64,000 bases of DNA from Paludibacter sp. (GCA_037142715.1 JBAXAD010000003.1:738-64737), one strand, 5' to 3'; shown: positions 27,477-50,481, numbered from the stretch's first letter. A program made the numbers and translations. The notes: generated by a model from the sequence alone, not told the origin.

Positions 27477-30146
27477 ATGAAAAACAAGATTTTACCCTCC
27501 CAATTACCCGAAAAACAAAATGATGAATCTCAAACGCCTGTAATAGAAAATGACATTTTACCACCAAAATCCGAAGTGAAAATATCAAAGAACCTTGTGC
27601 CTGATTTTCTGATTGTGGCAATTGGTGCATCGGCTGGCGGATTGGAAGCATTGGAATCTTTTTTCGAAAATATGCCTCTCAACAATAACATGGCATTCGT
27701 TGTGATTCAGCATCTTGACCCTACCCACAATGGTATTATGCCCGAACTGATGCAACGGTTTACGGCCATGAAGGTTATGCAAGCTACCGATCAACTCAAA
27801 GTGAAACCGAACTGCGTTTATATAATTCCACCCAACAAAAGTATGTCGATTCTGAAAGATACTTTGTATCTTTTTGAGCCTATTGAAACACGTGGACTGC
27901 GCCTTCCAATTGATTATTTTTTCCGTTCGTTGGCACAAGACAGGCTGGATAAGAGTGTTGGCATTATTCTTTCGGGTATGGGCTCCGATGGTACCCTTGG
28001 CATTAAAGCCATAAAAGAAAAAAATGGTGTGGTTCTGGTTCAGGATCCAAGTACGGCAAAATTTGACAGTATGCCACGTTCGGCCATCGAATCGGTTATA
28101 GTGGACATAGTAGCTCCAGCCAATCAGCTGCCATTAAAGTTGATAGAATTTATGAAGTTTATTCCAACAATCAATTTAGATGCAGAAGTGGAGGTGAAAA
28201 ATAAAAGTAATATCGATAAAATTATAATTCTGCTGCGTGAACAGTCGGGACATGATTTTTCGATGTATAAAAAAAACACCCTGTTTCGTCGCATCGAGAG
28301 GCGCAAAGGAGTTCATCAAATTGACCGACTTGAAAATTATGTCCGCTTTTTGCAAGAAAATCCCAAGGAGGTAGAAATTCTTTTCAAAGAACTGCTGATA
28401 GGCGTTACAAGTTTTTTTAGGGACACTGCCGTGTGGGAAAAATTAGAAGCAACCATCTTTCCTGATTTATTGAACGAAATGCCTGATGGTGCTGTGATGC
28501 GTGCTTGGGTGGCTGGTTGTTCTACCGGCGAAGAGGCATATTCACTAGCAATTTTATTCAAAGAATCGGTGGAAAAGCTTAAAAACCGCAGGAATATATC
28601 ATTACAGATTTTTGCTTCCGATTTGGACAGCGATGCCATTGAAATAGCCAGAAAAGGCATTTTCACTAAAAATATAGTTTCCGATGTTTCGCCCGAACGT
28701 CTTAATCGTTTTTTTATTGAAGAAGCTGGCTGCTTCAGGGTTACGAATGCCATACGTGAAATGGTGGTTTTTGCCCCACAAAATGTGATTAAAGATCCGC
28801 CATTTACAAAACTCGACATTTTGACTTGTCGCAATATGTTGATTTACATTGAACCAGAATTACAGAAGAAAATTATTACTTTATTTCATTACAGCCTCAA
28901 TCCAGGTGGAATAATGGTGCTTGGCACTGCCGAAACGCTTGGAAATATGAACATTGGATTTGAGGAAATTGATGGAAGATTGAAATTATTTAAACGAAGC
29001 GTAAATTCAATTTCTCCGGAACTGATTGATTTTCCAAGCTCTTTTCATAGACCAAAAATGGTTTCAAAAGAAAATAATAATACTTCAAAATCCATTGATA
29101 ATATTCAATCCATTGCCGATCAGATACTTCTTCAGAGGTTTACTCCTTCCAGTGTTTTGGTAAATTCCAAAGGCGACATTTTATACATTACTGGTCGCAC
29201 GGGAAATTATTTGGAATTGGTGGCTGGCAAAGCCAACTGGAATATTCACGTTATGGCCAGGGAAGGACTGCGACAGGAACTTCCGGTTGCGTTCCGCAAG
29301 GCCATGCAAAATTATGATCAAGTATTATTGTCAAATCTGAAAATTGGAATTAATGGTGGCAGTGTGTTAGTTAATGTGACAATTCAACGCATTGAAACTC
29401 CAGATTCTATAAAAGGCATGATTATGTTGGTGTTTAATGAAATTCCTTTTGTGCCCGAAATAGTGGATGCTGCAAAAAAACTGAGTAAACACAATTCTAG
29501 TAGGAATAAGGAACTTGAAATTGAACTTCAGCGAAGTTATGAGGATTTGCAAAGTACACGCGAGGAAATGCAAACATCGCAAGAAGAGTTAAAATCTACC
29601 AATGAAGAATTGCAATCTACCAATGAAGAATTGCAATCGACCAACGAAGAGCTGACCACTTCCAAAGAAGAAATGCAGAGCTTGAATGAAGAATTACAAA
29701 CGGTAAATTCAGAACTGCAAACCCGTGTTACCGATTTTATGCAGGCAAGTAACGACATGAAAAACTTGCTCAACAGTACTGAAATTGCCACTTTATTTTT
29801 GGATAAGGACTTAAATATAAGGCGTTTTACCGATTCGGCTACCACCATTTTTAAATTGAGAAATGCCGATGTGGGACGACCATATACCGACCTTGTTTCC
29901 GATTTGCAATACCCCGAAATGGATAAACACGCCCGTCAGGTAATAAGAACATTAACTACTATTGAAACGCCAATAAAAACCAATGATGGGAGATGGTACA
30001 ATGTTCGCATAATGCCATATCGTACACTGGATGACCGCATTGACGGGCTTATAATTACTTTTATGGATATTACATTTGCCAAAAAAATGGAAAATGAATT
30101 GAAGGAAGCCAAAGAGGAACTTTTGAAAAACGACAAAAAGATTTAA
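27477..30146 (+). CDS. CheB methylesterase-CheR methyltransferase-PAS-coiled-coil-PAS fusion
   Basis: CheB triad motifs GASAGG, IQHL, SGMGSDG; CheR motifs GVTSFFRD, WVAGCSTGEEAYSLA, FASDLD, CRNMLIY; (STNEELQ)n heptads; PAS_10-like C-terminus; no kinase domain. Confidence 0.95.
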   Translation: MKNKILPSQLPEKQNDESQTPVIENDILPPKSEVKISKNLVPDFLIVAIGASAGGLEALESFFENMPLNNNMAFVVIQHLDPTHNGIMPELMQRFTAMKVMQATDQLKVKPNCVYIIPPNKSMSILKDTLYLFEPIETRGLRLPIDYFFRSLAQDRLDKSVGIILSGMGSDGTLGIKAIKEKNGVVLVQDPSTAKFDSMPRSAIESVIVDIVAPANQLPLKLIEFMKFIPTINLDAEVEVKNKSNIDKIIILLREQSGHDFSMYKKNTLFRRIERRKGVHQIDRLENYVRFLQENPKEVEILFKELLIGVTSFFRDTAVWEKLEATIFPDLLNEMPDGAVMRAWVAGCSTGEEAYSLAILFKESVEKLKNRRNISLQIFASDLDSDAIEIARKGIFTKNIVSDVSPERLNRFFIEEAGCFRVTNAIREMVVFAPQNVIKDPPFTKLDILTCRNMLIYIEPELQKKIITLFHYSLNPGGIMVLGTAETLGNMNIGFEEIDGRLKLFKRSVNSISPELIDFPSSFHRPKMVSKENNNTSKSIDNIQSIADQILLQRFTPSSVLVNSKGDILYITGRTGNYLELVAGKANWNIHVMAREGLRQELPVAFRKAMQNYDQVLLSNLKIGINGGSVLVNVTIQRIETPDSIKGMIMLVFNEIPFVPEIVDAAKKLSKHNSSRNKELEIELQRSYEDLQSTREEMQTSQEELKSTNEELQSTNEELQSTNEELTTSKEEMQSLNEELQTVNSELQTRVTDFMQASNDMKNLLNSTEIATLFLDKDLNIRRFTDSATTIFKLRNADVGRPYTDLVSDLQYPEMDKHARQVIRTLTTIETPIKTNDGRWYNVRIMPYRTLDDRIDGLIITFMDITFAKKMENELKEAKEELLKNDKKI

Positions 30147-30151
30147 CATAT

Positions 30152-30422
30152 CCGCTTATCCGCTTTTTTGCGGTTTGTTGGATGATTGGAAGATAAGAGG
30201 AAAACCAAGAGTGCGTTAAAGACAACCTAACGCGTCCAACCGAAAAAAAATCGGTTGGACGCTACTAAACCGCTCAACCGCTTTCTCAGCGGTTTGTCGG
30301 ATGAATGGAAGATAAGGTAGAACCCGAAAGCATTAAAGACAACCTAACGCGTCAAACCGAAAAAAATCGGTTGGACGCTACTGAAACCTAACACTTCCAA
30401 CCGAAAAAAATCGGTTGGTAGC
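30152..30422. repeat. Left REP/BIME-like array: B-A-B-A-A hairpins
   Basis: REP-B at 30152 and 30270; REP-A (GCGTC(C/A)AACCG-A7/8-TCGGTTGGACGC) at 30232, 30349 and degenerate at 30393. A ~118-bp unit is duplicated. Confidence 0.92.
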
Positions 30423-30440
30423 TATAAAAAATAAGATATT

Positions 30441-31025
30441 ATGTATTTTACAAAAGACTGTACATACCATGTTTACAACCGGAGTAATGGACTTTTATTT
30501 CATAATAGGGAGAATTACATTTTCTTTCTGAAAAAGATTAGAATTCATATTCTACCTTTTGCGGATATTTTGTCTTATTGTTTAATGCCCAATCATTTTC
30601 ATTTAATACTGACTGCAAAAGCAGAAGGTGTTGTTTTTTTAGAAAATGAAAGATTGAAAGATTTACAACAATTATCACGGGGAATAGGAACGGTTTTGAG
30701 TTCATATACTCAAGCTGTAAACAAGCAGCAAGGCAATAAAGGATGTCTTTTTGCACACAAAACAAAAGCAAAGATTCTGAATGATGCAAAAGATGATTAT
30801 GCGTTAAATTGTTATATGTATGTACATCAAAATCCTTATCTAGCAAAATTGGTTGATAAAATTGAGGACTGGGAATTTTCCTCTTTCCTAGATTATATTG
30901 GGAGAAGAAACGGAACTTTAGTTAATAAACAAATGGGGATTGATATTTTTCAAGTACCCAAAAATCAGGTTTATGAACTTACCTATATAATGATGCAGGA
31001 CAAGTTCGATGAAGATTTTAATTGA
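30441..31025 (+). CDS. REP-associated tyrosine transposase (RAYT, HUH/Y1 family)
   Basis: YHVYNR, YCLMPNHFHLIL (HUH), YVHQNP (candidate catalytic Tyr) and WEFSSF motifs. Confidence 0.9.
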   Translation: MYFTKDCTYHVYNRSNGLLFHNRENYIFFLKKIRIHILPFADILSYCLMPNHFHLILTAKAEGVVFLENERLKDLQQLSRGIGTVLSSYTQAVNKQQGNKGCLFAHKTKAKILNDAKDDYALNCYMYVHQNPYLAKLVDKIEDWEFSSFLDYIGRRNGTLVNKQMGIDIFQVPKNQVYELTYIMMQDKFDEDFN

Positions 31026-31033
31026 TGCTGGAA

Positions 31034-31190
31034 ATCCGCATAACCGCTTTTTTTTGCGGTTTGTCGGATGAATTGTTAGAAGGATGCTGGAGGCTACTGA
31101 AACCTAACGCGTCAAACCGAAAAAAATCGGTTGGACGCTACTGAAACTAACGCGTCAAACCGAAAAAATCGGTTGTACGCTACTGAAAAC
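31034..31190. repeat. Right REP array: B-A-A hairpins
   Basis: ATCCGCATAACCGC-T-run-GCGGTTTGTCGGAT at 31034, then REP-A at 31109 and 31152, each followed by TACTGAAA. Confidence 0.92.
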
Positions 31191-45444: not shown

Positions 45445-47874
45445 ATGAAAAACGAAATTACCGATGTTGATACTACTCTTCGCCAAAAGGCAGAAAAGTT
45501 ATTAAAAAAGAAAGCTACAAAAAAAGTAGAAACGCAACTCTCAGAAGCCGATTCGTTAAAATTAATCCACGAATTGGATGTGTATCAAATAGAGCTTGAT
45601 ATGCAAACCGATGAGTTTCAGCAATCGAAATTGTATGATGCAGAAAGGTTAGCACTCATACACCAATTGGAAGCTCACCATGTAGAGCTTGAGATGCAAA
45701 ACCATGAACTCAGCTTGGCTCGTGTAAAGGCTGAAAAAATTGCAAAAAATTATTCTACTTTATATGATTTTGCGCCAACTGGTTATTTTACACTTTCCGT
45801 TGATGGTGAGATACTTGAACTCAATCTTTGTGGAGCGCAAATGCTTGGTAAAGAGCGAAGTAATTTATTGAATAGCAGATTTGCATTTTTTGTTTCCAAC
45901 AACACCAAACCATTTTTTCAACTTTTTCTGGATAAAGTATTTATTACCAATAAAACTGAAACCTGCGAAATTACAATCAAAACCGATGGCAATCCCTCTA
46001 TATATGCACATGTAACTGGATTGATTTCTGAAAATAAAGACCAATGCCTTCTTACTGTTGTTGATATTACCAAAAGGAAAAAAGCTGAAGAAGAACTGTT
46101 ACTTAAGAATGTCATTTTTGATTCATCCATTGCTGCTAATAGTATAGCCGATATTGATGGTATAATTATAGAAGTAAACAATTCTTTTTACCTCGGTTGG
46201 GGTTATAAAAGTAAGTATGAAGTTATTGGAAAGTCTATAGCTAGTTTTTTTGCTTATAGCTCTGAAGCCGAGCAGATTATGAATTCCTTGAATGAAACCG
46301 GACAATGGGAAGGCGAATTTATTGCCAAGCGGGTTGACAATTCACACTTCTTTGCTTATGCTACTGCTACAGTTGTTAGAGATAAGTATGATAAAATAAT
46401 TGGTTATCAATCATCTGTTATAGATAATACGAATCAAAAAATTGCTGAGGAAGCTTTAAAAGTGAGCGAAGAAAAATTCCGTGGCATTTTTGAAAACACC
46501 AAGGATATTTTCTTTCAAATTAGTTTAGACGGAAAAATCATAGATATTAGCCCATCGGTAAAGTCATTAACAAATATCTCTAGAGAGGAATTTATTGGTA
46601 AGTCTTTCATAGATTCACATAATAATCCTCTGAAAACAAAATTGCTTTTCGATTCCGTTATTAACAATGTGGATTTAACAGACTTTGAAATTGAAGTTAA
46701 ATCCAAAAATGGTCATTCAAAGTTTTTATCCATAAATGCCATATTAATTGTTGACCAATTAGGAAACAAAAAACATATTGATGGATCAATAAGAGATGTC
46801 ACTGAACGAAAACTGGCCGAGGATGCATTGACAGAAAGTGAGGAGAATTATCGGTTCATGTTTGCAAATAATCCGCAACCGATGTGGATTTATGATTTGG
46901 AAACCCTTGTGATATTGGAGGTTAACCAATCAGCAATTTGCCATTATGGTTATTCAAGAGAAGAATTTCTGTCAATGACATTAAAAGATTTACGACCAAA
47001 AGAGGATTTTCCAGCACTTATGAGGGATTTGGAATTGGCCAAAGCCGACAATAACACGGTTACCCAATGGCGGCACATTAAGAAAAATAAAGAGTCAATA
47101 TTTGTAGAAGTCATTGCTCATTCGGTCAAATATAACGGAAGAAATGCACGTCATGTTTTGATAAACGACATTACCGAGCGCAAGCAAGTGGAGTTCAAAT
47201 TGGTAAATACGCAGGAAGAGCTGAAGAAATTTGCAGCGCATCTTCAAAATATCCGCGAGGAAGAAAGAATAATGTTGGCTCGCGATATTCATGACGAATT
47301 GGCTCAAATTCTTATTGCCATAAAAATGGATATGGGTTTAATAAAACAAAAATTATCAAGAGGACTAAATAGTATTTGTAATGAGGAACTTATGGAGAAT
47401 TTTAACCATGTATTTGGTCTTGTCGACAACACAATTCATACCTCAAGAAAAATAATGTCAGGACTAAGGTCAGAAATGCTTGAATTGCTTGGATTGATTG
47501 AAACCATTAAAATATATACCAAAGAGTATGAAGGCAGGCATTATATAAAATGCAATATGATGATTGAAAGCAATGAAGTAGAATTTGATCCACATAAATC
47601 TGTCACTTTATTAAGGATATATCAGGAAATATTAACAAATGTAGTTAAGCATGCAGAGGCTACTGAGTTAAATATTTATCTGACAGTTAAATCAAAAATA
47701 CTTATCATGGAAGTAAAAGACAATGGTAGGGGTTTTGATAAAACCACGGAAAACAAACCCAATACTTATGGGATAATTGGAATGAAAGAAAGGACTTTTT
47801 TGTTGGATGGAAAATTAAGTATTGAAACTGAACCAGGAAAAGGAACTACCGTAAAAGTGGAAATTCCATATTAG
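45445..47874 (+). CDS. HK4: N-terminal ELEMQ coiled coil-4 PAS-HisKA_3-HATPase
   Basis: LRQKAEKLL...LIHELDVYQIELDMQ...ELEMQNHEL, PAS units, ARDIHDELAQ and DNGRGF. Confidence 0.92.
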   Translation: MKNEITDVDTTLRQKAEKLLKKKATKKVETQLSEADSLKLIHELDVYQIELDMQTDEFQQSKLYDAERLALIHQLEAHHVELEMQNHELSLARVKAEKIAKNYSTLYDFAPTGYFTLSVDGEILELNLCGAQMLGKERSNLLNSRFAFFVSNNTKPFFQLFLDKVFITNKTETCEITIKTDGNPSIYAHVTGLISENKDQCLLTVVDITKRKKAEEELLLKNVIFDSSIAANSIADIDGIIIEVNNSFYLGWGYKSKYEVIGKSIASFFAYSSEAEQIMNSLNETGQWEGEFIAKRVDNSHFFAYATATVVRDKYDKIIGYQSSVIDNTNQKIAEEALKVSEEKFRGIFENTKDIFFQISLDGKIIDISPSVKSLTNISREEFIGKSFIDSHNNPLKTKLLFDSVINNVDLTDFEIEVKSKNGHSKFLSINAILIVDQLGNKKHIDGSIRDVTERKLAEDALTESEENYRFMFANNPQPMWIYDLETLVILEVNQSAICHYGYSREEFLSMTLKDLRPKEDFPALMRDLELAKADNNTVTQWRHIKKNKESIFVEVIAHSVKYNGRNARHVLINDITERKQVEFKLVNTQEELKKFAAHLQNIREEERIMLARDIHDELAQILIAIKMDMGLIKQKLSRGLNSICNEELMENFNHVFGLVDNTIHTSRKIMSGLRSEMLELLGLIETIKIYTKEYEGRHYIKCNMMIESNEVEFDPHKSVTLLRIYQEILTNVVKHAEATELNIYLTVKSKILIMEVKDNGRGFDKTTENKPNTYGIIGMKERTFLLDGKLSIETEPGKGTTVKVEIPY

Positions 47875-47894
47875 AAGAACAGCTAGCCCTCCAA

Positions 47895-47912
47895 CGGGAA
47901 TTAGGCAAGTTC
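47895..47912. repeat. Partial family C element
   Basis: GGGAATTAGGCAAGTTCA matches the inner left arm of the copies at 3243 and 45308. Confidence 0.5.
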
Positions 47913-48003
47913 ACTTTACAAGTTTCGCGTCCAATCGTTTTTTTTTACGGTTTGAAGCATAAGTAAGCAGAAATAAAAGCGGTTTGACACAATAAAACGA
48001 ATT

Positions 48004-50481
48004 ATGAATAAAGAATTTAAAAAAATGTTTCCAATTCTGCGACAAAAAGCAGAAGAGTTGTTAAAGGCTGCTCCGGCTAAAAACACCGTTGCCCAGCTTT
48101 CTGAAGCCGAAGCTTTGAAACTTTTGCACGAATTGGAAGTATATGAAATTGAACTGGAAATGCAAACCAATGAGTTTGCAATTGCAAATGAGCTGTATTC
48201 CAATAACTTGAAATTGATGCAAGAACAGGCGATAAAAAATATTGAGTTGGAGATGCAGAAGGAAGCACTTGTGGAAGCAAAGTTGGAATTGTCGGAAACA
48301 GCAAAGCAATATGCTGAATTTTTTGACAATGCTGACACAGGTTTTTTTACACTAAGCCACGAAGGAGATATTTTGGAGTTAAATCTATACGGCGCACAGT
48401 TAATTGGAAAACCAAAAAACCATTTAATAAATGCACGTTTCGGCTTTTTTGTGTCTGAGTCTACAAAGTAGATTTTCAATAAGTTTATAGAGCAAATTTT
48501 TCAAAATTCCGAAAAGAAAACTTGCGAAGTTGAACTGATTACACCAGAAGGGATTTTAAGTATTTGTCAATTGATAGGCATTGCTTCAGAAAACTCAGTT
48601 AAATGTTTGTTGACAGTAAAAGATATTTCGCAACAGAAAAAATTTGAAGCAGCTTTTATTGCGGATAATTCTCGACTGGAATTGGCTATGGAGGCTGGAA
48701 AAATTGCATGGTGGGAAATGGAAACTCCTACTGGAAATATTACTTGCGACAACAGAAAAACAGCAATGCTTGGTTTTTCACCCGAAAATTTCACCCATTA
48801 TACCCATTATACAGCTTTGGTGCATCCCGAAGATGTGGAAAGAACAATGGAGGCAATGCGTCAACATATTTATGGAACCGCCAAAAAATATGAAGCTGAA
48901 TATAGAATTCGCACAGCTTCAGGTACTTATATTTGGACTTTGGATATGGGTTCAATTACTAAAAGAGACGAACAGGGTAAACCGTTGGTGGTTGCAGGAC
49001 TGGTAATAGATATAACCGAAAGAAAATTACAAGAAGCCATTAAAGGAGATGCGCTTCATCGCCTCCAAAAAATTGCGAGCTGTGTGCCAGGTGTAGTTTA
49101 TCAGTATAAATTACGACCAGACGGAACTTCATGTTTTCCATTTTCTAGTGAAGCATTGGCAAGCATTTATCGTGTTAATCCAAAAGATGTAATCGAAGAT
49201 GCATCCTCAGTTTTTAAAAATATTCACCCTGATGATCTTGAAGAAGTTACCGATACCATTCAGTATTCGGCAAAAAATTTAACCCAATGGCAACATGAAT
49301 ATCGGGTGAAATTTGATGATGGAACCGTTCGTCATCTTTTTGGAGATTCCATACCTCAACTTGAAGAAGATGGATCTGTGCTTTGGCATGGATATATTTC
49401 GGATATAACTGAAAGAAAGTTATTTGAACAGAAGCAAAGAGAATCAGACCAGCAATTTCGCGATATGTTTGAAAAAAATACAGCGGTAAAGTTAGTTGTA
49501 GATCCTGAAAGTGGCTCGATAATTAATGCAAATCTAGCTGCCGGAAAATTCTACGGCTATTCAATAAAACAGCTTGAAAACATGAATATTGATGAGATAA
49601 ATATACTCGATTTTACTCAAATTAGAAACAAAATGAGTATTGCCATCGATGGGAATTCTACTTGTTTTTATTTTCAACATCGATTGGCGTCTGGCGAAGT
49701 TCGTGATGTGGAAGTTTATTCTGGTCCTATTCAACTTGGCGGGAGAACAGTTCTTAATTCGATTGTACATGACATTACTGTACGGAAAAGAGCTGAAGAG
49801 GCTTTGAGATTGTCGCAAGAAGAACTGAAAAGGTTTGCCTCTCATTTACAACACATTCACGAGGAGGAAAGAGTATTGTTGGCACGCGAAATCCATGATG
49901 AACTTGCCCAGACTTTGATTGCTTTGAAAATTGACATGGGAATGTTGAAATCAAAAGTATTAAAAGATGCTGAAAATGTAGATGCAAACGATATATTGAT
50001 TAAATTTGACCAGCTTTTCGGATTGGTGAACAATACCATTAAAACCGCAGGCAGTATTATGACTGGCCTGAGACCGGAAGCTTTATATTTACTTGGGTTA
50101 GTAGAGGCTATATCGTTGTATGTCAATAAATTCAAATCCAAATACCAAATTGATTGTCAGTTTGAAAACTCAGTTTTTGAGCATGATATTAATCCACAGC
50201 AATCAATAGCGTTATTTCGGATTCTGCAAGAAGCACTCGAGAATGTGGCTCAACATGCAAAAGCTTCAAAGGTAGTTATCTATTTAAGTTTAGATAAGAA
50301 CAATTTAGTGATGGTAATTAATGATAATGGAATAGGTTTCAATAAATGTATGCATTTAAAATCAGAGACTTATGGAATTATTGGGATGAAAGAAAGAGCC
50401 CTATTTGTGAATGGGATTTTTTCTATTACAGCTATTTTGGGTCAAGGTACAACCATTAAAGTGGAAATACCACAACTATAA
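48004..50481 (+). pseudogene. HK5: ELEMQ coiled coil-4 PAS-HisKA_3-HATPase, interrupted by one in-frame TAG at 48469-48471
   Basis: Track ORFs 48004-48471 and 48571-50481 are in the same frame. Readthrough gives ...FVSESTK*IFNKFIEQIF...CLLTVKDI, colinear with HK4 ...FVSNNTKPFFQLFLDKVF...CLLTVVDI. H-box AREIHDELAQ. Confidence 0.85.

Follow-up and report, generated by a model that had tools for sequence, protein, structure and literature searches.

A CheB/CheR fusion protein and a helix-PAS module of histidine kinases: likely functional partners in a candidate split MAC1-type signalling system

Introduction

The locus under study, a stretch of 64,000 nucleotides from Paludibacter sp. (GCA_037142715.1 JBAXAD010000003.1:738-64737; hereafter the window), raises the question of which proteins are served by a CheB/CheR fusion enzyme, CheBR, and whether two histidine kinases encoded farther along, HK4 and HK5, are among them. 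The original prediction was that CheBR methylates its own glutamate-rich heptads, the N-terminal helices of these kinases, or both, possibly through a hetero-coiled-coil. Proteins with built-in CheB and CheR have been described as the MAC1 class of 'methyl-accepting coiled coil' proteins (Wuichet and Zhulin 2010, as cited in 10.1101/2022.05.07.491037 and PMC6943060); according to the accessible text of these two sources, MAC proteins are uncharacterised experimentally and contain a predicted methyl-accepting coil, and they have been described as holding both receptor and kinase functions (10.1101/2022.05.07.491037). Since CheBR is a kinase-less form of this published class, self-methylation of its heptads was already an existing prediction. 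Positions are those of the window and all features given with coordinates lie on the + strand.

Results

The CheB/CheR fusion protein

The cheBR gene (27477-30146) is an 889-aa ORF coding for a kinase-less MAC1-type protein with the order CheB-CheR-coiled coil-PAS_10, in which Pfam places CheB_methylest at aa 47-220, CheR_N at 246-296, CheR at 310-500 and PAS_10 at 761-866. The CheB methylesterase/deamidase domain (27615-28136; PF01339, E = 5e-55) retains an intact Ser-His-Asp triad, as judged from an alignment in which Ser164, His190 and Asp286 of PDB 1a2o fall on S, H and D within the motifs IGASAGG, IQHL and GMGSDG of the query. The SAM-dependent methyltransferase domain, composed of CheR_N and CheR (28212-28976; PF03705 match and PF01739 with E = 1e-50), keeps the FFRD, WxAGCSTGEEAYS and CRNxLIY motifs when aligned to 5xly and 1af7. 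Given this conservation of catalytic triad and SAM-binding motifs, both enzymes look active. Farther on, a single helix of 94 residues (aa 674-767; 29496-29777; AlphaFold2) carries seven EE(L/M) heptads of the form x-(S/T)-N-E-E-(L/M)-(Q/K/T) and is presumed to be a methyl-accepting coiled coil; in the AlphaFold2 model of segment 640-889 it occupies residues 35-128, with a pLDDT of about 95. These heptads hardly change among 120 close homologues or from phylum to phylum, and Tandem Repeats Finder confirmed that the STNEELQ units lie on a 21-bp tandem repeat within the ORF, where it codes for about three of them (29593-29650; 2.8 copies, 94% matches, score 102). The protein ends with the PAS_10 domain (29757-30074; PF13596, E = 2e-31, with the fold present in the AlphaFold2 model) and a conserved C-terminal helix (...AKKxExELKxAxEEL), a tail common to the kinase-less CheBR homologues.

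A Pfam search of the 889 residues returned neither HisKA nor HATPase_c. The homologues of CheBR amount to more than 8000 clusters, many of them named 'CheB/CheR fusion protein' by the source databases, and close homologues in JGI records bear the exact name of KEGG K13924 (cheBR), 'Two-component system, chemotaxis family, CheB/CheR fusion protein'. This label covers the same order of CheB_methylest, CheR_N, CheR and PAS_10, but is an annotation without mechanism, silent on the coil and on partner proteins. MAC1 proteins and CheBR are alike in that CheB and CheR are fused to a long Glu-Glu heptad coil that is a predicted methyl acceptor, and both are cytoplasmic, independent of CheA/CheW and often found in genomes that have other Che systems or none. 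The difference is that CheBR stops after PAS_10, the kinase being provided by separate genes. Indeed, in genomes with CheBR but lacking the N-terminal module described below, the CheB-CheR-coil-PAS_10 unit was fused to PAS/GAF-HisKA-HATPase in 7 of the 7 proteins scanned, and for this reason CheBR is filed here as a kinase-less variant and not as a typical MAC1 member.

The kinases HK4 and HK5

HK4 (45445-47874) is a multi-PAS kinase of 809 aa and HK5 (48004-50481) is its paralogue. By their Pfam domains, HisKA_3 (PF07730, aa 607-676 in HK4) and HATPase_c (PF02518, aa 719-808), a pair which recurs in the C-terminal part of HK5, both are NarL-type (HisKA_3) PAS sensor histidine kinases. That each begins with two (I/V)EL(E/D)MQ units, which HK1-3 lack, was borne out by a profile search of the window: HK4 and HK5 were the only matches, in two stretches each (E = 1e-32 and E = 1.5e-23, respectively), and HK1-3 gave none. 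At such full-sequence E-values (1e-32 and about 1e-23) the motif is not due to chance. The match begins at aa 12-19 in the two kinases and is followed by a PAS domain, as inferred from the AlphaFold2 model and from alignments. In HK4, a short N-terminal helix forming the first part of the module (LRQKAEKLLKKK, 45463-45516; AlphaFold2 helix aa 7-24) precedes an unbroken helix of 75 residues (aa 34-108, 45544-45768; AlphaFold2, overall pLDDT 93) that holds both units, HELDVYQIELDMQTDEF (aa 42-58, nt 45568-45618) and HQLEAHHVELEMQNHEL (aa 73-89, nt 45661-45711), spaced by 31 residues. The first PAS domain comes next, as it invariably does after the module (45781-46065; AlphaFold2 strands and helices at aa 113-207), with the YDFAPxGYF... 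signature and two near-invariant Cys, and according to Foldseek resembles PAS structures such as 3bwl. The corresponding units of HK5 are HELEVYEIELEMQTNEF (nt 48127-48177) and KNIELEMQKEAL (nt 48235-48270).

One correction to the original prediction is that the reading frame of HK5 is broken by an in-frame TAG (48469-48471) in its first PAS domain, at the position where HK4 and the intact 960-aa protein P0135 have the conserved Pro of TKP(I/F)F. The gene is split into two ORFs in one frame, 48004-48471 and 48571-50481, and its read-through is 58% identical to P0135.

A conserved N-terminal module

The helices of HK4 and HK5 form part of an N-terminal module that hardly varies, LRQKAE...HELEVHQIELE[M/L]QNEEL followed by a PAS domain (YDFAPxGYF). 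It was found in 2,398 representative clusters (50% identity, E <= 1e-3), almost without exception at aa 30-80. Across 243 unique sequences of the module, the L, R, A and E of the short helix are conserved at 94-99%, and along the long helix conservation reaches 96% for E34, 99% for E41, 95% for E43, 98% for Q45, 97% for N46 and 97% for E48. Position 36 is the single one at which E (71%) and Q (21%) are exchanged. Four more module proteins, mostly of an ELELQ variant, are encoded in the same genome outside the window (contigs C6, C9, C37 and C15). Having the ELEMQ helix in duplicate is a minor trait of the lineage and does not define the system; the STNEELQ heptads and the ELEMQ helix are both family signatures rather than local oddities.

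Co-occurrence across genomes

Among 401 genomes of the window's own phylum, both the module and CheBR are present in 66, the module only in 2, CheBR only in 51 and neither in 282; the respective figures for 251 genomes of the phylum of Desulfobacter vibrioformis are 31, 7, 9 and 204. The link proposed between the cheBR fusion and the kinases with ELEMQ helices survives this comparison, as the fusion is present in 66 of 68 and in 31 of 38 module-bearing genomes, samples which are phylogenetically clumped (51 of the 68 come from one family), and the module usually lies directly downstream. In the window's phylum, all 15 genera with the module fall among the 48 with CheBR. Two genomes, G174 and G413, have the module and yielded no CheR of any sort. 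A single genome may contain as many as 16 matches to the module together with one or two CheBR genes, so that CheBR would serve many module proteins much as CheR serves many chemoreceptors. The chemoreceptor domain MCPsignal went undetected in 55 of the 68 module genomes, and therefore CheBR cannot serve chemoreceptors there.

Gene order and the cis and trans arrangements

Operonic adjacency is frequent: of 55 module loci for which 3 kb or more of preceding sequence was available, 36 have a complete cheBR immediately upstream in the same orientation. They are drawn from Bacteroidota, Leptospirales, Myxococcota, Nitrospinales, Anaerolineales, Clostridia, Lentisphaeria, Planctomycetes, Desulfobacter and other groups, the adjacency spanning more than 10 phyla, and the median distance from the cheBR stop to the module start is 8 nt, several pairs overlapping by 4 or 8 nt. 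Viewed from the enzyme, at least 45 of the 76 strongest CheBR matches in the genome sample (E of about 1e-60 or better) have a module match 61-1400 nt downstream. In around one third of the pairs the downstream gene codes for a stand-alone protein of about 183 aa, consisting solely of the module and a single PAS, and about one third of the module genes do not adjoin cheBR. The window itself is atypical, as HK4 starts 15.3 kb past the cheBR stop on the same strand and contig, and the two are separated by a RAYT/REP element and the module-less kinases HK1-3, which makes co-transcription doubtful. A literature search retrieved no paper on the cheBR-module gene pair, and the accessible text of the literature on MAC proteins holds no mention of the module.

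The module was absent from 8 of 8 kinase-fused proteins examined in module-less genomes, and its profile matched none of 128 CheBR-family proteins. The distribution is complementary: the kinase is either fused in cis or provided in trans together with the module. Co-occurrence, gene order, this cis/trans pattern and the lack of chemoreceptors strongly support a functional link between CheBR and the module proteins, and we consider it highly probable that they are functional partners.

Discussion

We propose that the window encodes a MAC1-type methylation signalling system in 'split' form. The cheBR product, which lacks an output domain, would bring together methylesterase/deamidase and methyltransferase, an N-E-E-L helix and a PAS_10 sensor, and HK4, HK5 and the four genomic relatives would supply the output in trans. 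The module, comprising the short helix, the HELEVHQIELE(M/L)QNEEL helix and a dedicated PAS, would be the interface to CheBR, the physical contact being probably established through helix-helix and PAS-PAS interactions. Indeed, the AlphaFold2 models of the CheBR segment and of HK4 share a topology of long helix, PAS and helix, with which the proposed hetero-coiled-coil is compatible, and the module helix and the CheBR coil have no detectable homology. The input received by PAS_10 would set the methylation state of CheBR and in this way tune the activity of the bound kinases, and methylation or deamidation of conserved Glu/Gln residues in the module may add a second layer. For this mechanism as a whole, in which the module couples kinases to a self-methylating CheBR, we see the arguments as evenly balanced.

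The classical chemoreceptor methylation site is Glu-Glu-X-X-Ala-Ser/Thr. The heptads of CheBR fit this consensus as originally predicted, although as a sequence match only, with E-E-L-Q-S-T having Ser in place of Ala (EE-x-x-S-T versus EE-x-x-A-S/T), and the EE pairs of CheBR itself are most likely the main methyl-accepting sites. Comparison with the adaptation of E. coli Tar/Tsr by CheR/CheB reveals the same enzyme folds, with catalytic residues conserved in CheBR, Glu-Glu pairs that sit ahead of small residues within a heptad helix, and one enzyme for several receptor-like proteins. The systems differ in that the one under study has no MCPsignal, hairpin four-helix bundle, CheA or CheW, that the enzymes and their presumed substrate are in one polypeptide, that the CheB of CheBR has no receiver domain, and that the output is a classical HisKA or HisKA_3 kinase in place of CheA. 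In agreement, Pfam detected no MCPsignal (PF00015) in CheBR, HK4 or HK5, and the only match in the genome is on contig C4.

A different possibility is that the ELEMQ helices of the module family are themselves methyl-accepting and deamidation substrates of CheBR, forming a non-chemoreceptor class. The genomic linkage is equally expected in this case, and the extreme conservation of exposed polar residues of the helix (95-99%), the chemoreceptor-like exchange of E and Q at position 36, the N-E-E-L heptad identical to the CheBR heptad core and the many module proteins per enzyme would all be accounted for. However, an EE-x-x-(A/S)(S/T) site is missing from the helix, in which x-x-A comes after N-E-E-L and the register is off by one residue, and the E/Q exchange is confined to that one position. 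Moreover, kinase-fused MAC1 proteins keep enzymes and heptads without the module, and so the enzymes must have a module-free substrate. We thus regard this alternative as rather unlikely, and hold with the same reserve its broader form, in which the module-bearing PAS proteins would be widespread unrecognised methyl-accepting transducers, CheBR docking on their N-terminal helix and modifying its Glu/Gln residues instead of or besides its own coil. If true, cytoplasmic two-component kinases in more than 10 phyla would gain a chemotaxis-style adaptation memory.

Helices N-terminal to PAS domains often pair into homodimeric coiled coils, and the module could be a mere dimerisation helix of one PAS subfamily, with the operon reflecting co-regulation or a common signal and CheBR acting without contact, on itself or on a third protein. 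The Foldseek matches, which are generic PAS dimers, would agree with this, as would the module genes away from cheBR, the two genomes with the module and no CheR, and the 15.3 kb separating the genes in the window. Plain dimerisation, however, would not require polar residues to be so nearly invariant in more than 10 phyla, the cis/trans complementarity and gaps of 8 nt or less point to stoichiometric partners, and proteins of about 183 aa made of module and PAS make little sense without a binding partner, all of which renders this scenario improbable. It is very improbable indeed that CheBR serves as an additional adaptation enzyme of the one conventional chemoreceptor in this genome (549 aa, with CheW and CheA) and the kinase helices are unrelated, since that chemoreceptor belongs to a canonical CheR/CheW/MCP/CheA/CheB cluster on contig C4 that is separate from cheBR and has its own CheR and CheB, and 55 of the 68 module genomes lack chemoreceptor domains altogether.

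As part of the proposed split MAC1-type system, the module gives this enzyme family a testable partner. A related arrangement is that of operons in which unfused cheR and cheB genes stand between hybrid histidine kinases; here too, methylation enzymes of the chemotaxis type are linked to kinases other than CheA in the absence of a chemoreceptor, but the NEEL coil and PAS_10 are missing and the kinases differ in sensor architecture. In one genome (G474) a stand-alone CheR lies directly upstream of a module gene, an arrangement that hints at an intermediate form.

CheBR and the N-terminal helices of HK4 and HK5

The cheBR gene (27477-30146, + strand) encodes a kinase-less CheB-CheR fusion of 889 aa, in which Pfam recognises the domains CheB_methylest (aa 47-220), CheR_N, CheR (aa 310-500) and PAS_10 (aa 761-866). 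Both enzyme halves appear intact at the level of key residues, as the CheB triad Ser164/His190/Asp286 is kept (alignment to 1a2o) and so are the SAM-binding motifs of the CheR half (alignment to 5xly and 1af7). The STNEELQ heptads of its coiled coil had been attributed to a 21-bp tandem repeat, and this is borne out by Tandem Repeats Finder, which places the repeat at 29593-29650 (+ strand; 2.8 copies, 94% matches). When residues 640-889 are used as query, at least 8000 clusters are retrieved, many of them named 'CheB/CheR fusion protein' in the source databases; seven or eight near-identical EE(L/M) heptads are present in 119 of the best 120 homologues, and the heptads are invariant also in CheBR genes of other phyla. 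A few homologues (P0030, L013, L041) have a number of NEEL heptads that is off by exactly one unit, as is consistent with slippage at the 21-bp DNA repeat.

In the histidine kinase HK4 (45445-47874, + strand, 809 aa), Pfam finds four PAS domains followed by HisKA_3 and HATPase_c. Its N-terminus contains HELDVYQIELDMQTDEF and, 31 residues on, HQLEAHHVELEMQNHEL, and HK5 (48004 onward) carries HELEVYEIELEMQTNEF and KNIELEMQKEAL. The original prediction held that HK4 and HK5 each start with two such helix units and that HK1-3 lack them; the motif profile matches HK4 twice, HK5 twice and no other protein in the window, so that the claim about HK1-3 is correct as well. HK5 is broken by an in-frame TAG (48469-48471, + strand) within the first PAS domain, at a codon that aligns with a conserved Pro of HK4 and of an intact 960-aa homologue (58% identical), and it could be a pseudogene, the product of a sequencing error, or a gene divided into a module fragment of 155 aa and a kinase body. 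Over the whole genome, a strict regex (E[LM][EDQ]MQ) suggested a motif unique to HK4 and HK5, which is misleading because the profile search added four proteins with ELELQ-type variants: the genome encodes six module proteins, namely HK4, HK5 and one each on contigs C6, C9, C37 and C15.

The module as a protein family

The helix units are part of a module made up of an N-terminal helix family and a dedicated PAS domain. With HK4 residues 1-112 as query, a full HMMER scan over 1.84 billion representative proteins (E <= 1e-3) yielded 2,398 clusters with the module, whose shared layout consists of LRQKAEELLKKK, ~12 variable residues and then LSEADxLKLIHELEVHQIELE(M/L)QNEELxxAKxxAE...KYxELYDFAPSGYFTLS. 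This near-invariant stretch lies at residues 10-110 in almost all family proteins, and kinases make up 55 of the 69 longer representatives. Most module proteins have a single helix unit, the duplicated form being a minority found in HK4, HK5, the C6 protein of the same genome and, for example, P0121-P0127, P0135 and P0184. The CheBR heptads and the kinase N-terminus are both family signatures.

Co-occurrence of the module and CheBR

A 60-position module profile (A1) and the CheBR coil plus PAS_10 segment were both searched against one set of 401 genomes from the window's phylum: both are present in 66 genomes, the module only in 2, CheBR only in 51 and neither in 282. The corresponding numbers for 251 genomes of the phylum of Desulfobacter vibrioformis are 31, 7, 9 and 204. 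An equal frequency of ELEMQ-type helices without cheBR, which the original prediction had named as speaking against it, is thus not what is seen, since module-only genomes are few in both phyla; the module mostly occurs together with CheBR (66/68 and 31/38 genomes), although these counts overstate independence because the samples are phylogenetically clumped, 51 of the 68 module genomes coming from one family. The genus-level and cross-phylum results are independent of this dominant family: among the 180 genera of the 401-genome sample, the module is found in 15 and the CheBR segment in 48, which include all 15 module genera.

Exceptions with a module and no cheBR exist and are few. Five of the module-only genomes were checked; three have a stand-alone CheR, and no CheR of any kind was found in G174 and G413. 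At G474:C5:24423-25874, in the second-phylum sample, a stand-alone 275-aa CheR, not a fusion, lies directly upstream (724 nt) of a module gene, an arrangement that may be MAC2-like or intermediate.

Gene order

In the genome sample, at least 45 of the 76 strongest CheBR matches have a same-strand module match 61-1400 nt downstream among the module matches listed, which is a lower bound, 95 more module matches existing besides these. An independent scan, with one genome per species, gave 80 module loci with organism names, 55 of which have 3 kb or more of DNA upstream. A complete same-strand cheB-cheR-coil-PAS_10 gene immediately precedes the module gene in 36 of the 55; cheBR is 2.7 or 6 kb away in two, and was not found in the upstream DNA (at least 3 kb) of the other 17. 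The 36 adjacent loci come from Bacteroidales, Flavobacterium, Leptospirales, Myxococcota, Nitrospinales, Anaerolineales, Clostridia (Tindallia, Syntrophomonadaceae), Lentisphaeria, Planctomycetaceae, Chloroflexi, Desulfobacter and Delongbacteria. The gap between the cheBR stop and the module-gene start has a median of 8 nt and is usually within 100 nt, and in several pairs the two genes share 4 or 8 nt, a pattern typical of co-translated partners. Co-occurrence and gene order strongly support, on the grounds of comparative genomics, the proposed functional link between CheBR and the ELEMQ-helix kinases.

Among 35 module proteins downstream of cheBR, 17 are kinases; receiver domains occur in twelve and GerE in two. 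In about a third of cases the gene directly after cheBR codes for no more than a stand-alone module with one PAS domain, of ~183 aa (L033, L046, L047, L048, L055, L060, L066, L080, L086) or ~228 aa (L045, L057, L062, L085), and these proteins are handy minimal partners for experiments.

The window itself is an exception to the usual adjacency, as cheBR and HK4 are 15.3 kb apart, with a RAYT/REP element and HK1-3 between them. Together with the 117-bp and 42-bp tandem repeats that flank it (30152-30388 and 31088-31188), a 194-aa ORF (30441-31025) between cheBR and HK1 occupies the exact place that the module gene has in other genomes. Upstream of cheBR, the metagenome contigs L095/L096, whose CheBR C-terminus is 81% identical, have rpoN, a 201-aa ORF and secDF in the same order as the window. 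The gene that follows cheBR on these contigs is an unrelated one, so that the region downstream of cheBR is variable in the lineage. In the closest relative HK4 was not found beside cheBR, the downstream gene being unrelated, and the comparison carries no information on the order of events. The duplicated units, the cheBR-HK4 separation and the HK5 stop codon are local peculiarities and secondary.

Cis-fused and trans-encoded kinases

In module-less genomes the weaker CheBR matches are fusion proteins of 1192-1489 aa, and in all seven scanned a kinase is fused in cis, the CheB-CheR-coil-PAS_10 part leading into PAS/GAF, HisKA or HisKA_3, HATPase_c and sometimes a receiver. The module was found in none of 128 CheBR-family proteins (cis-kinase fusions and 120 kinase-less homologues): a Rosetta-stone fusion of CheBR to the module is not among them, the only fusions seen being those to a kinase. 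The kinase thus comes in one of two forms, cis-fused and lacking the module or trans-encoded and carrying it, and this complementarity is the strongest argument for the module as a putative device that couples CheBR to its output.

Structure models and comparison of the helices

AlphaFold2 models were built with alignments taken from the fetched loci. In that of HK4 1-235 (pLDDT 93) a short helix (aa 7-24) and a loop precede a continuous 75-residue helix (aa 34-108) containing both ELEMQ units, followed by a PAS fold (aa 113-207) and a further helix (aa 209-234); that of CheBR 640-889 (pLDDT 89) has a single helix of 94 residues followed by PAS_10 and a C-terminal helix. The two models therefore have a common topology, [long helix]-[PAS]-[helix]. 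In a profile-profile comparison of module plus PAS with CheBR coil plus PAS_10, the PAS parts alone align (81% probability); the two helices are therefore not detectably homologous, and a common ancestry of module helix and CheBR coil was rejected. Foldseek with the HK4 N-terminal model gave generic PAS matches only.

Both helices have Leu at each seventh residue and Asn or Gln three residues ahead (N-E-E-L in CheBR; I-H-E-L, Q-I-E-L and N-E-E-L in the module). At 31 residues, the distance between the duplicated units corresponds to four heptads plus three residues and would keep Leu in a core position. A second conserved hydrophobic stripe on the opposite face of the module (V37, I40, M/L44; profile numbering) may serve as a surface for another helix.

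In the PAS domain after the module, two cysteines are nearly invariant (KExCEV and CLxTxxDIT; alignments A3/A5). In HK4 they lie within aa 171-200 (window about 45955-46044), on separate β-strands of the AlphaFold2 model, E172-178 and E200-207; they might be a redox-sensitive pair or cofactor ligands.

Candidate methylation sites

The classical chemoreceptor methylation site is Glu-Glu-X-X-Ala-Ser/Thr. The CheBR heptads (E-E-L-Q-S-T) fit this pattern with Ser replacing Ala, and the more economical reading would be that the CheBR coil is the primary methyl acceptor and the module a docking surface. The original prediction also had CheBR methylate the module helix itself, e.g. HELEVHQIELEMQNEEL, which agrees with the exchange of E (71%) and Q (21%) at profile position 36. 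We consider this less likely: no site of the classical type is found in the module helix, the exchange is limited to that one position, the other conserved acidic and amide residues being nearly fixed, and the CheBR heptads are present with or without a module. The original interpretation is thus partly supported, comparative genomics arguing for the functional link and the methylation chemistry standing as a prediction.

Relation to known systems

According to the statements on proteins of the MAC (methyl-accepting coiled-coil) type in PMC6943060, these were defined by Wuichet and Zhulin in 2010, MAC1 incorporates CheB and CheR domains, and profiles for MAC proteins were built in MiST 3.0. 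As of 2022, MAC-type CheB/CheR fusions were not experimentally characterised in any respect (10.1101/2022.05.07.491037). The MAC1 concept being already published, the self-methylation half of the idea is an existing prediction. Within the MAC1 kind, the system here is a split, kinase-less version with a dedicated partner module, new as a variant. Literature mentions of a CheB-CheR fusion or CheBR were at annotation level only, and no paper on either the sequence of the module or its pairing with cheBR was found in a search that had subscription journals mostly outside its range.

MAC-type fusions are abundant (at least 8000 clusters) and were catalogued in 2010. In many phyla a dedicated, near-invariant partner is encoded directly downstream of a kinase-less cheBR, and in many genomes with the pair a chemoreceptor domain is not detectable; the question of substrate and output is therefore reduced to binding and methylation of small soluble fragments. 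Should ordinary histidine kinases prove to be tuned by methylation, covalent adaptation would reach past chemotaxis into mainstream two-component signalling.

Relation to chemotaxis

In 55 of the 68 genomes with the module no MCPsignal domain was detected, and in the family to which most of the 68 belong it is present in one of 87 genomes. In one family with genomes of 2-3 Mb (phylum sample, families f24 and f7), CheBR and module are found in ~58% of species, a single genome having as many as 16 module matches, and this family runs the CheBR-module system without any chemotaxis machinery. The single chemoreceptor of the present genome is an unlikely CheBR substrate, as it sits on contig C4 in a complete cluster with its own CheR and CheB and most module genomes have no detected chemoreceptor domain. 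This conventional cluster (~18.3-28.2 kb; L001, L003, L004), separate from the CheBR system, comprises CheR in a 503-aa frame, CheW, CheA, CheB in a 359-aa open frame and the one transmembrane chemoreceptor of 549 aa.
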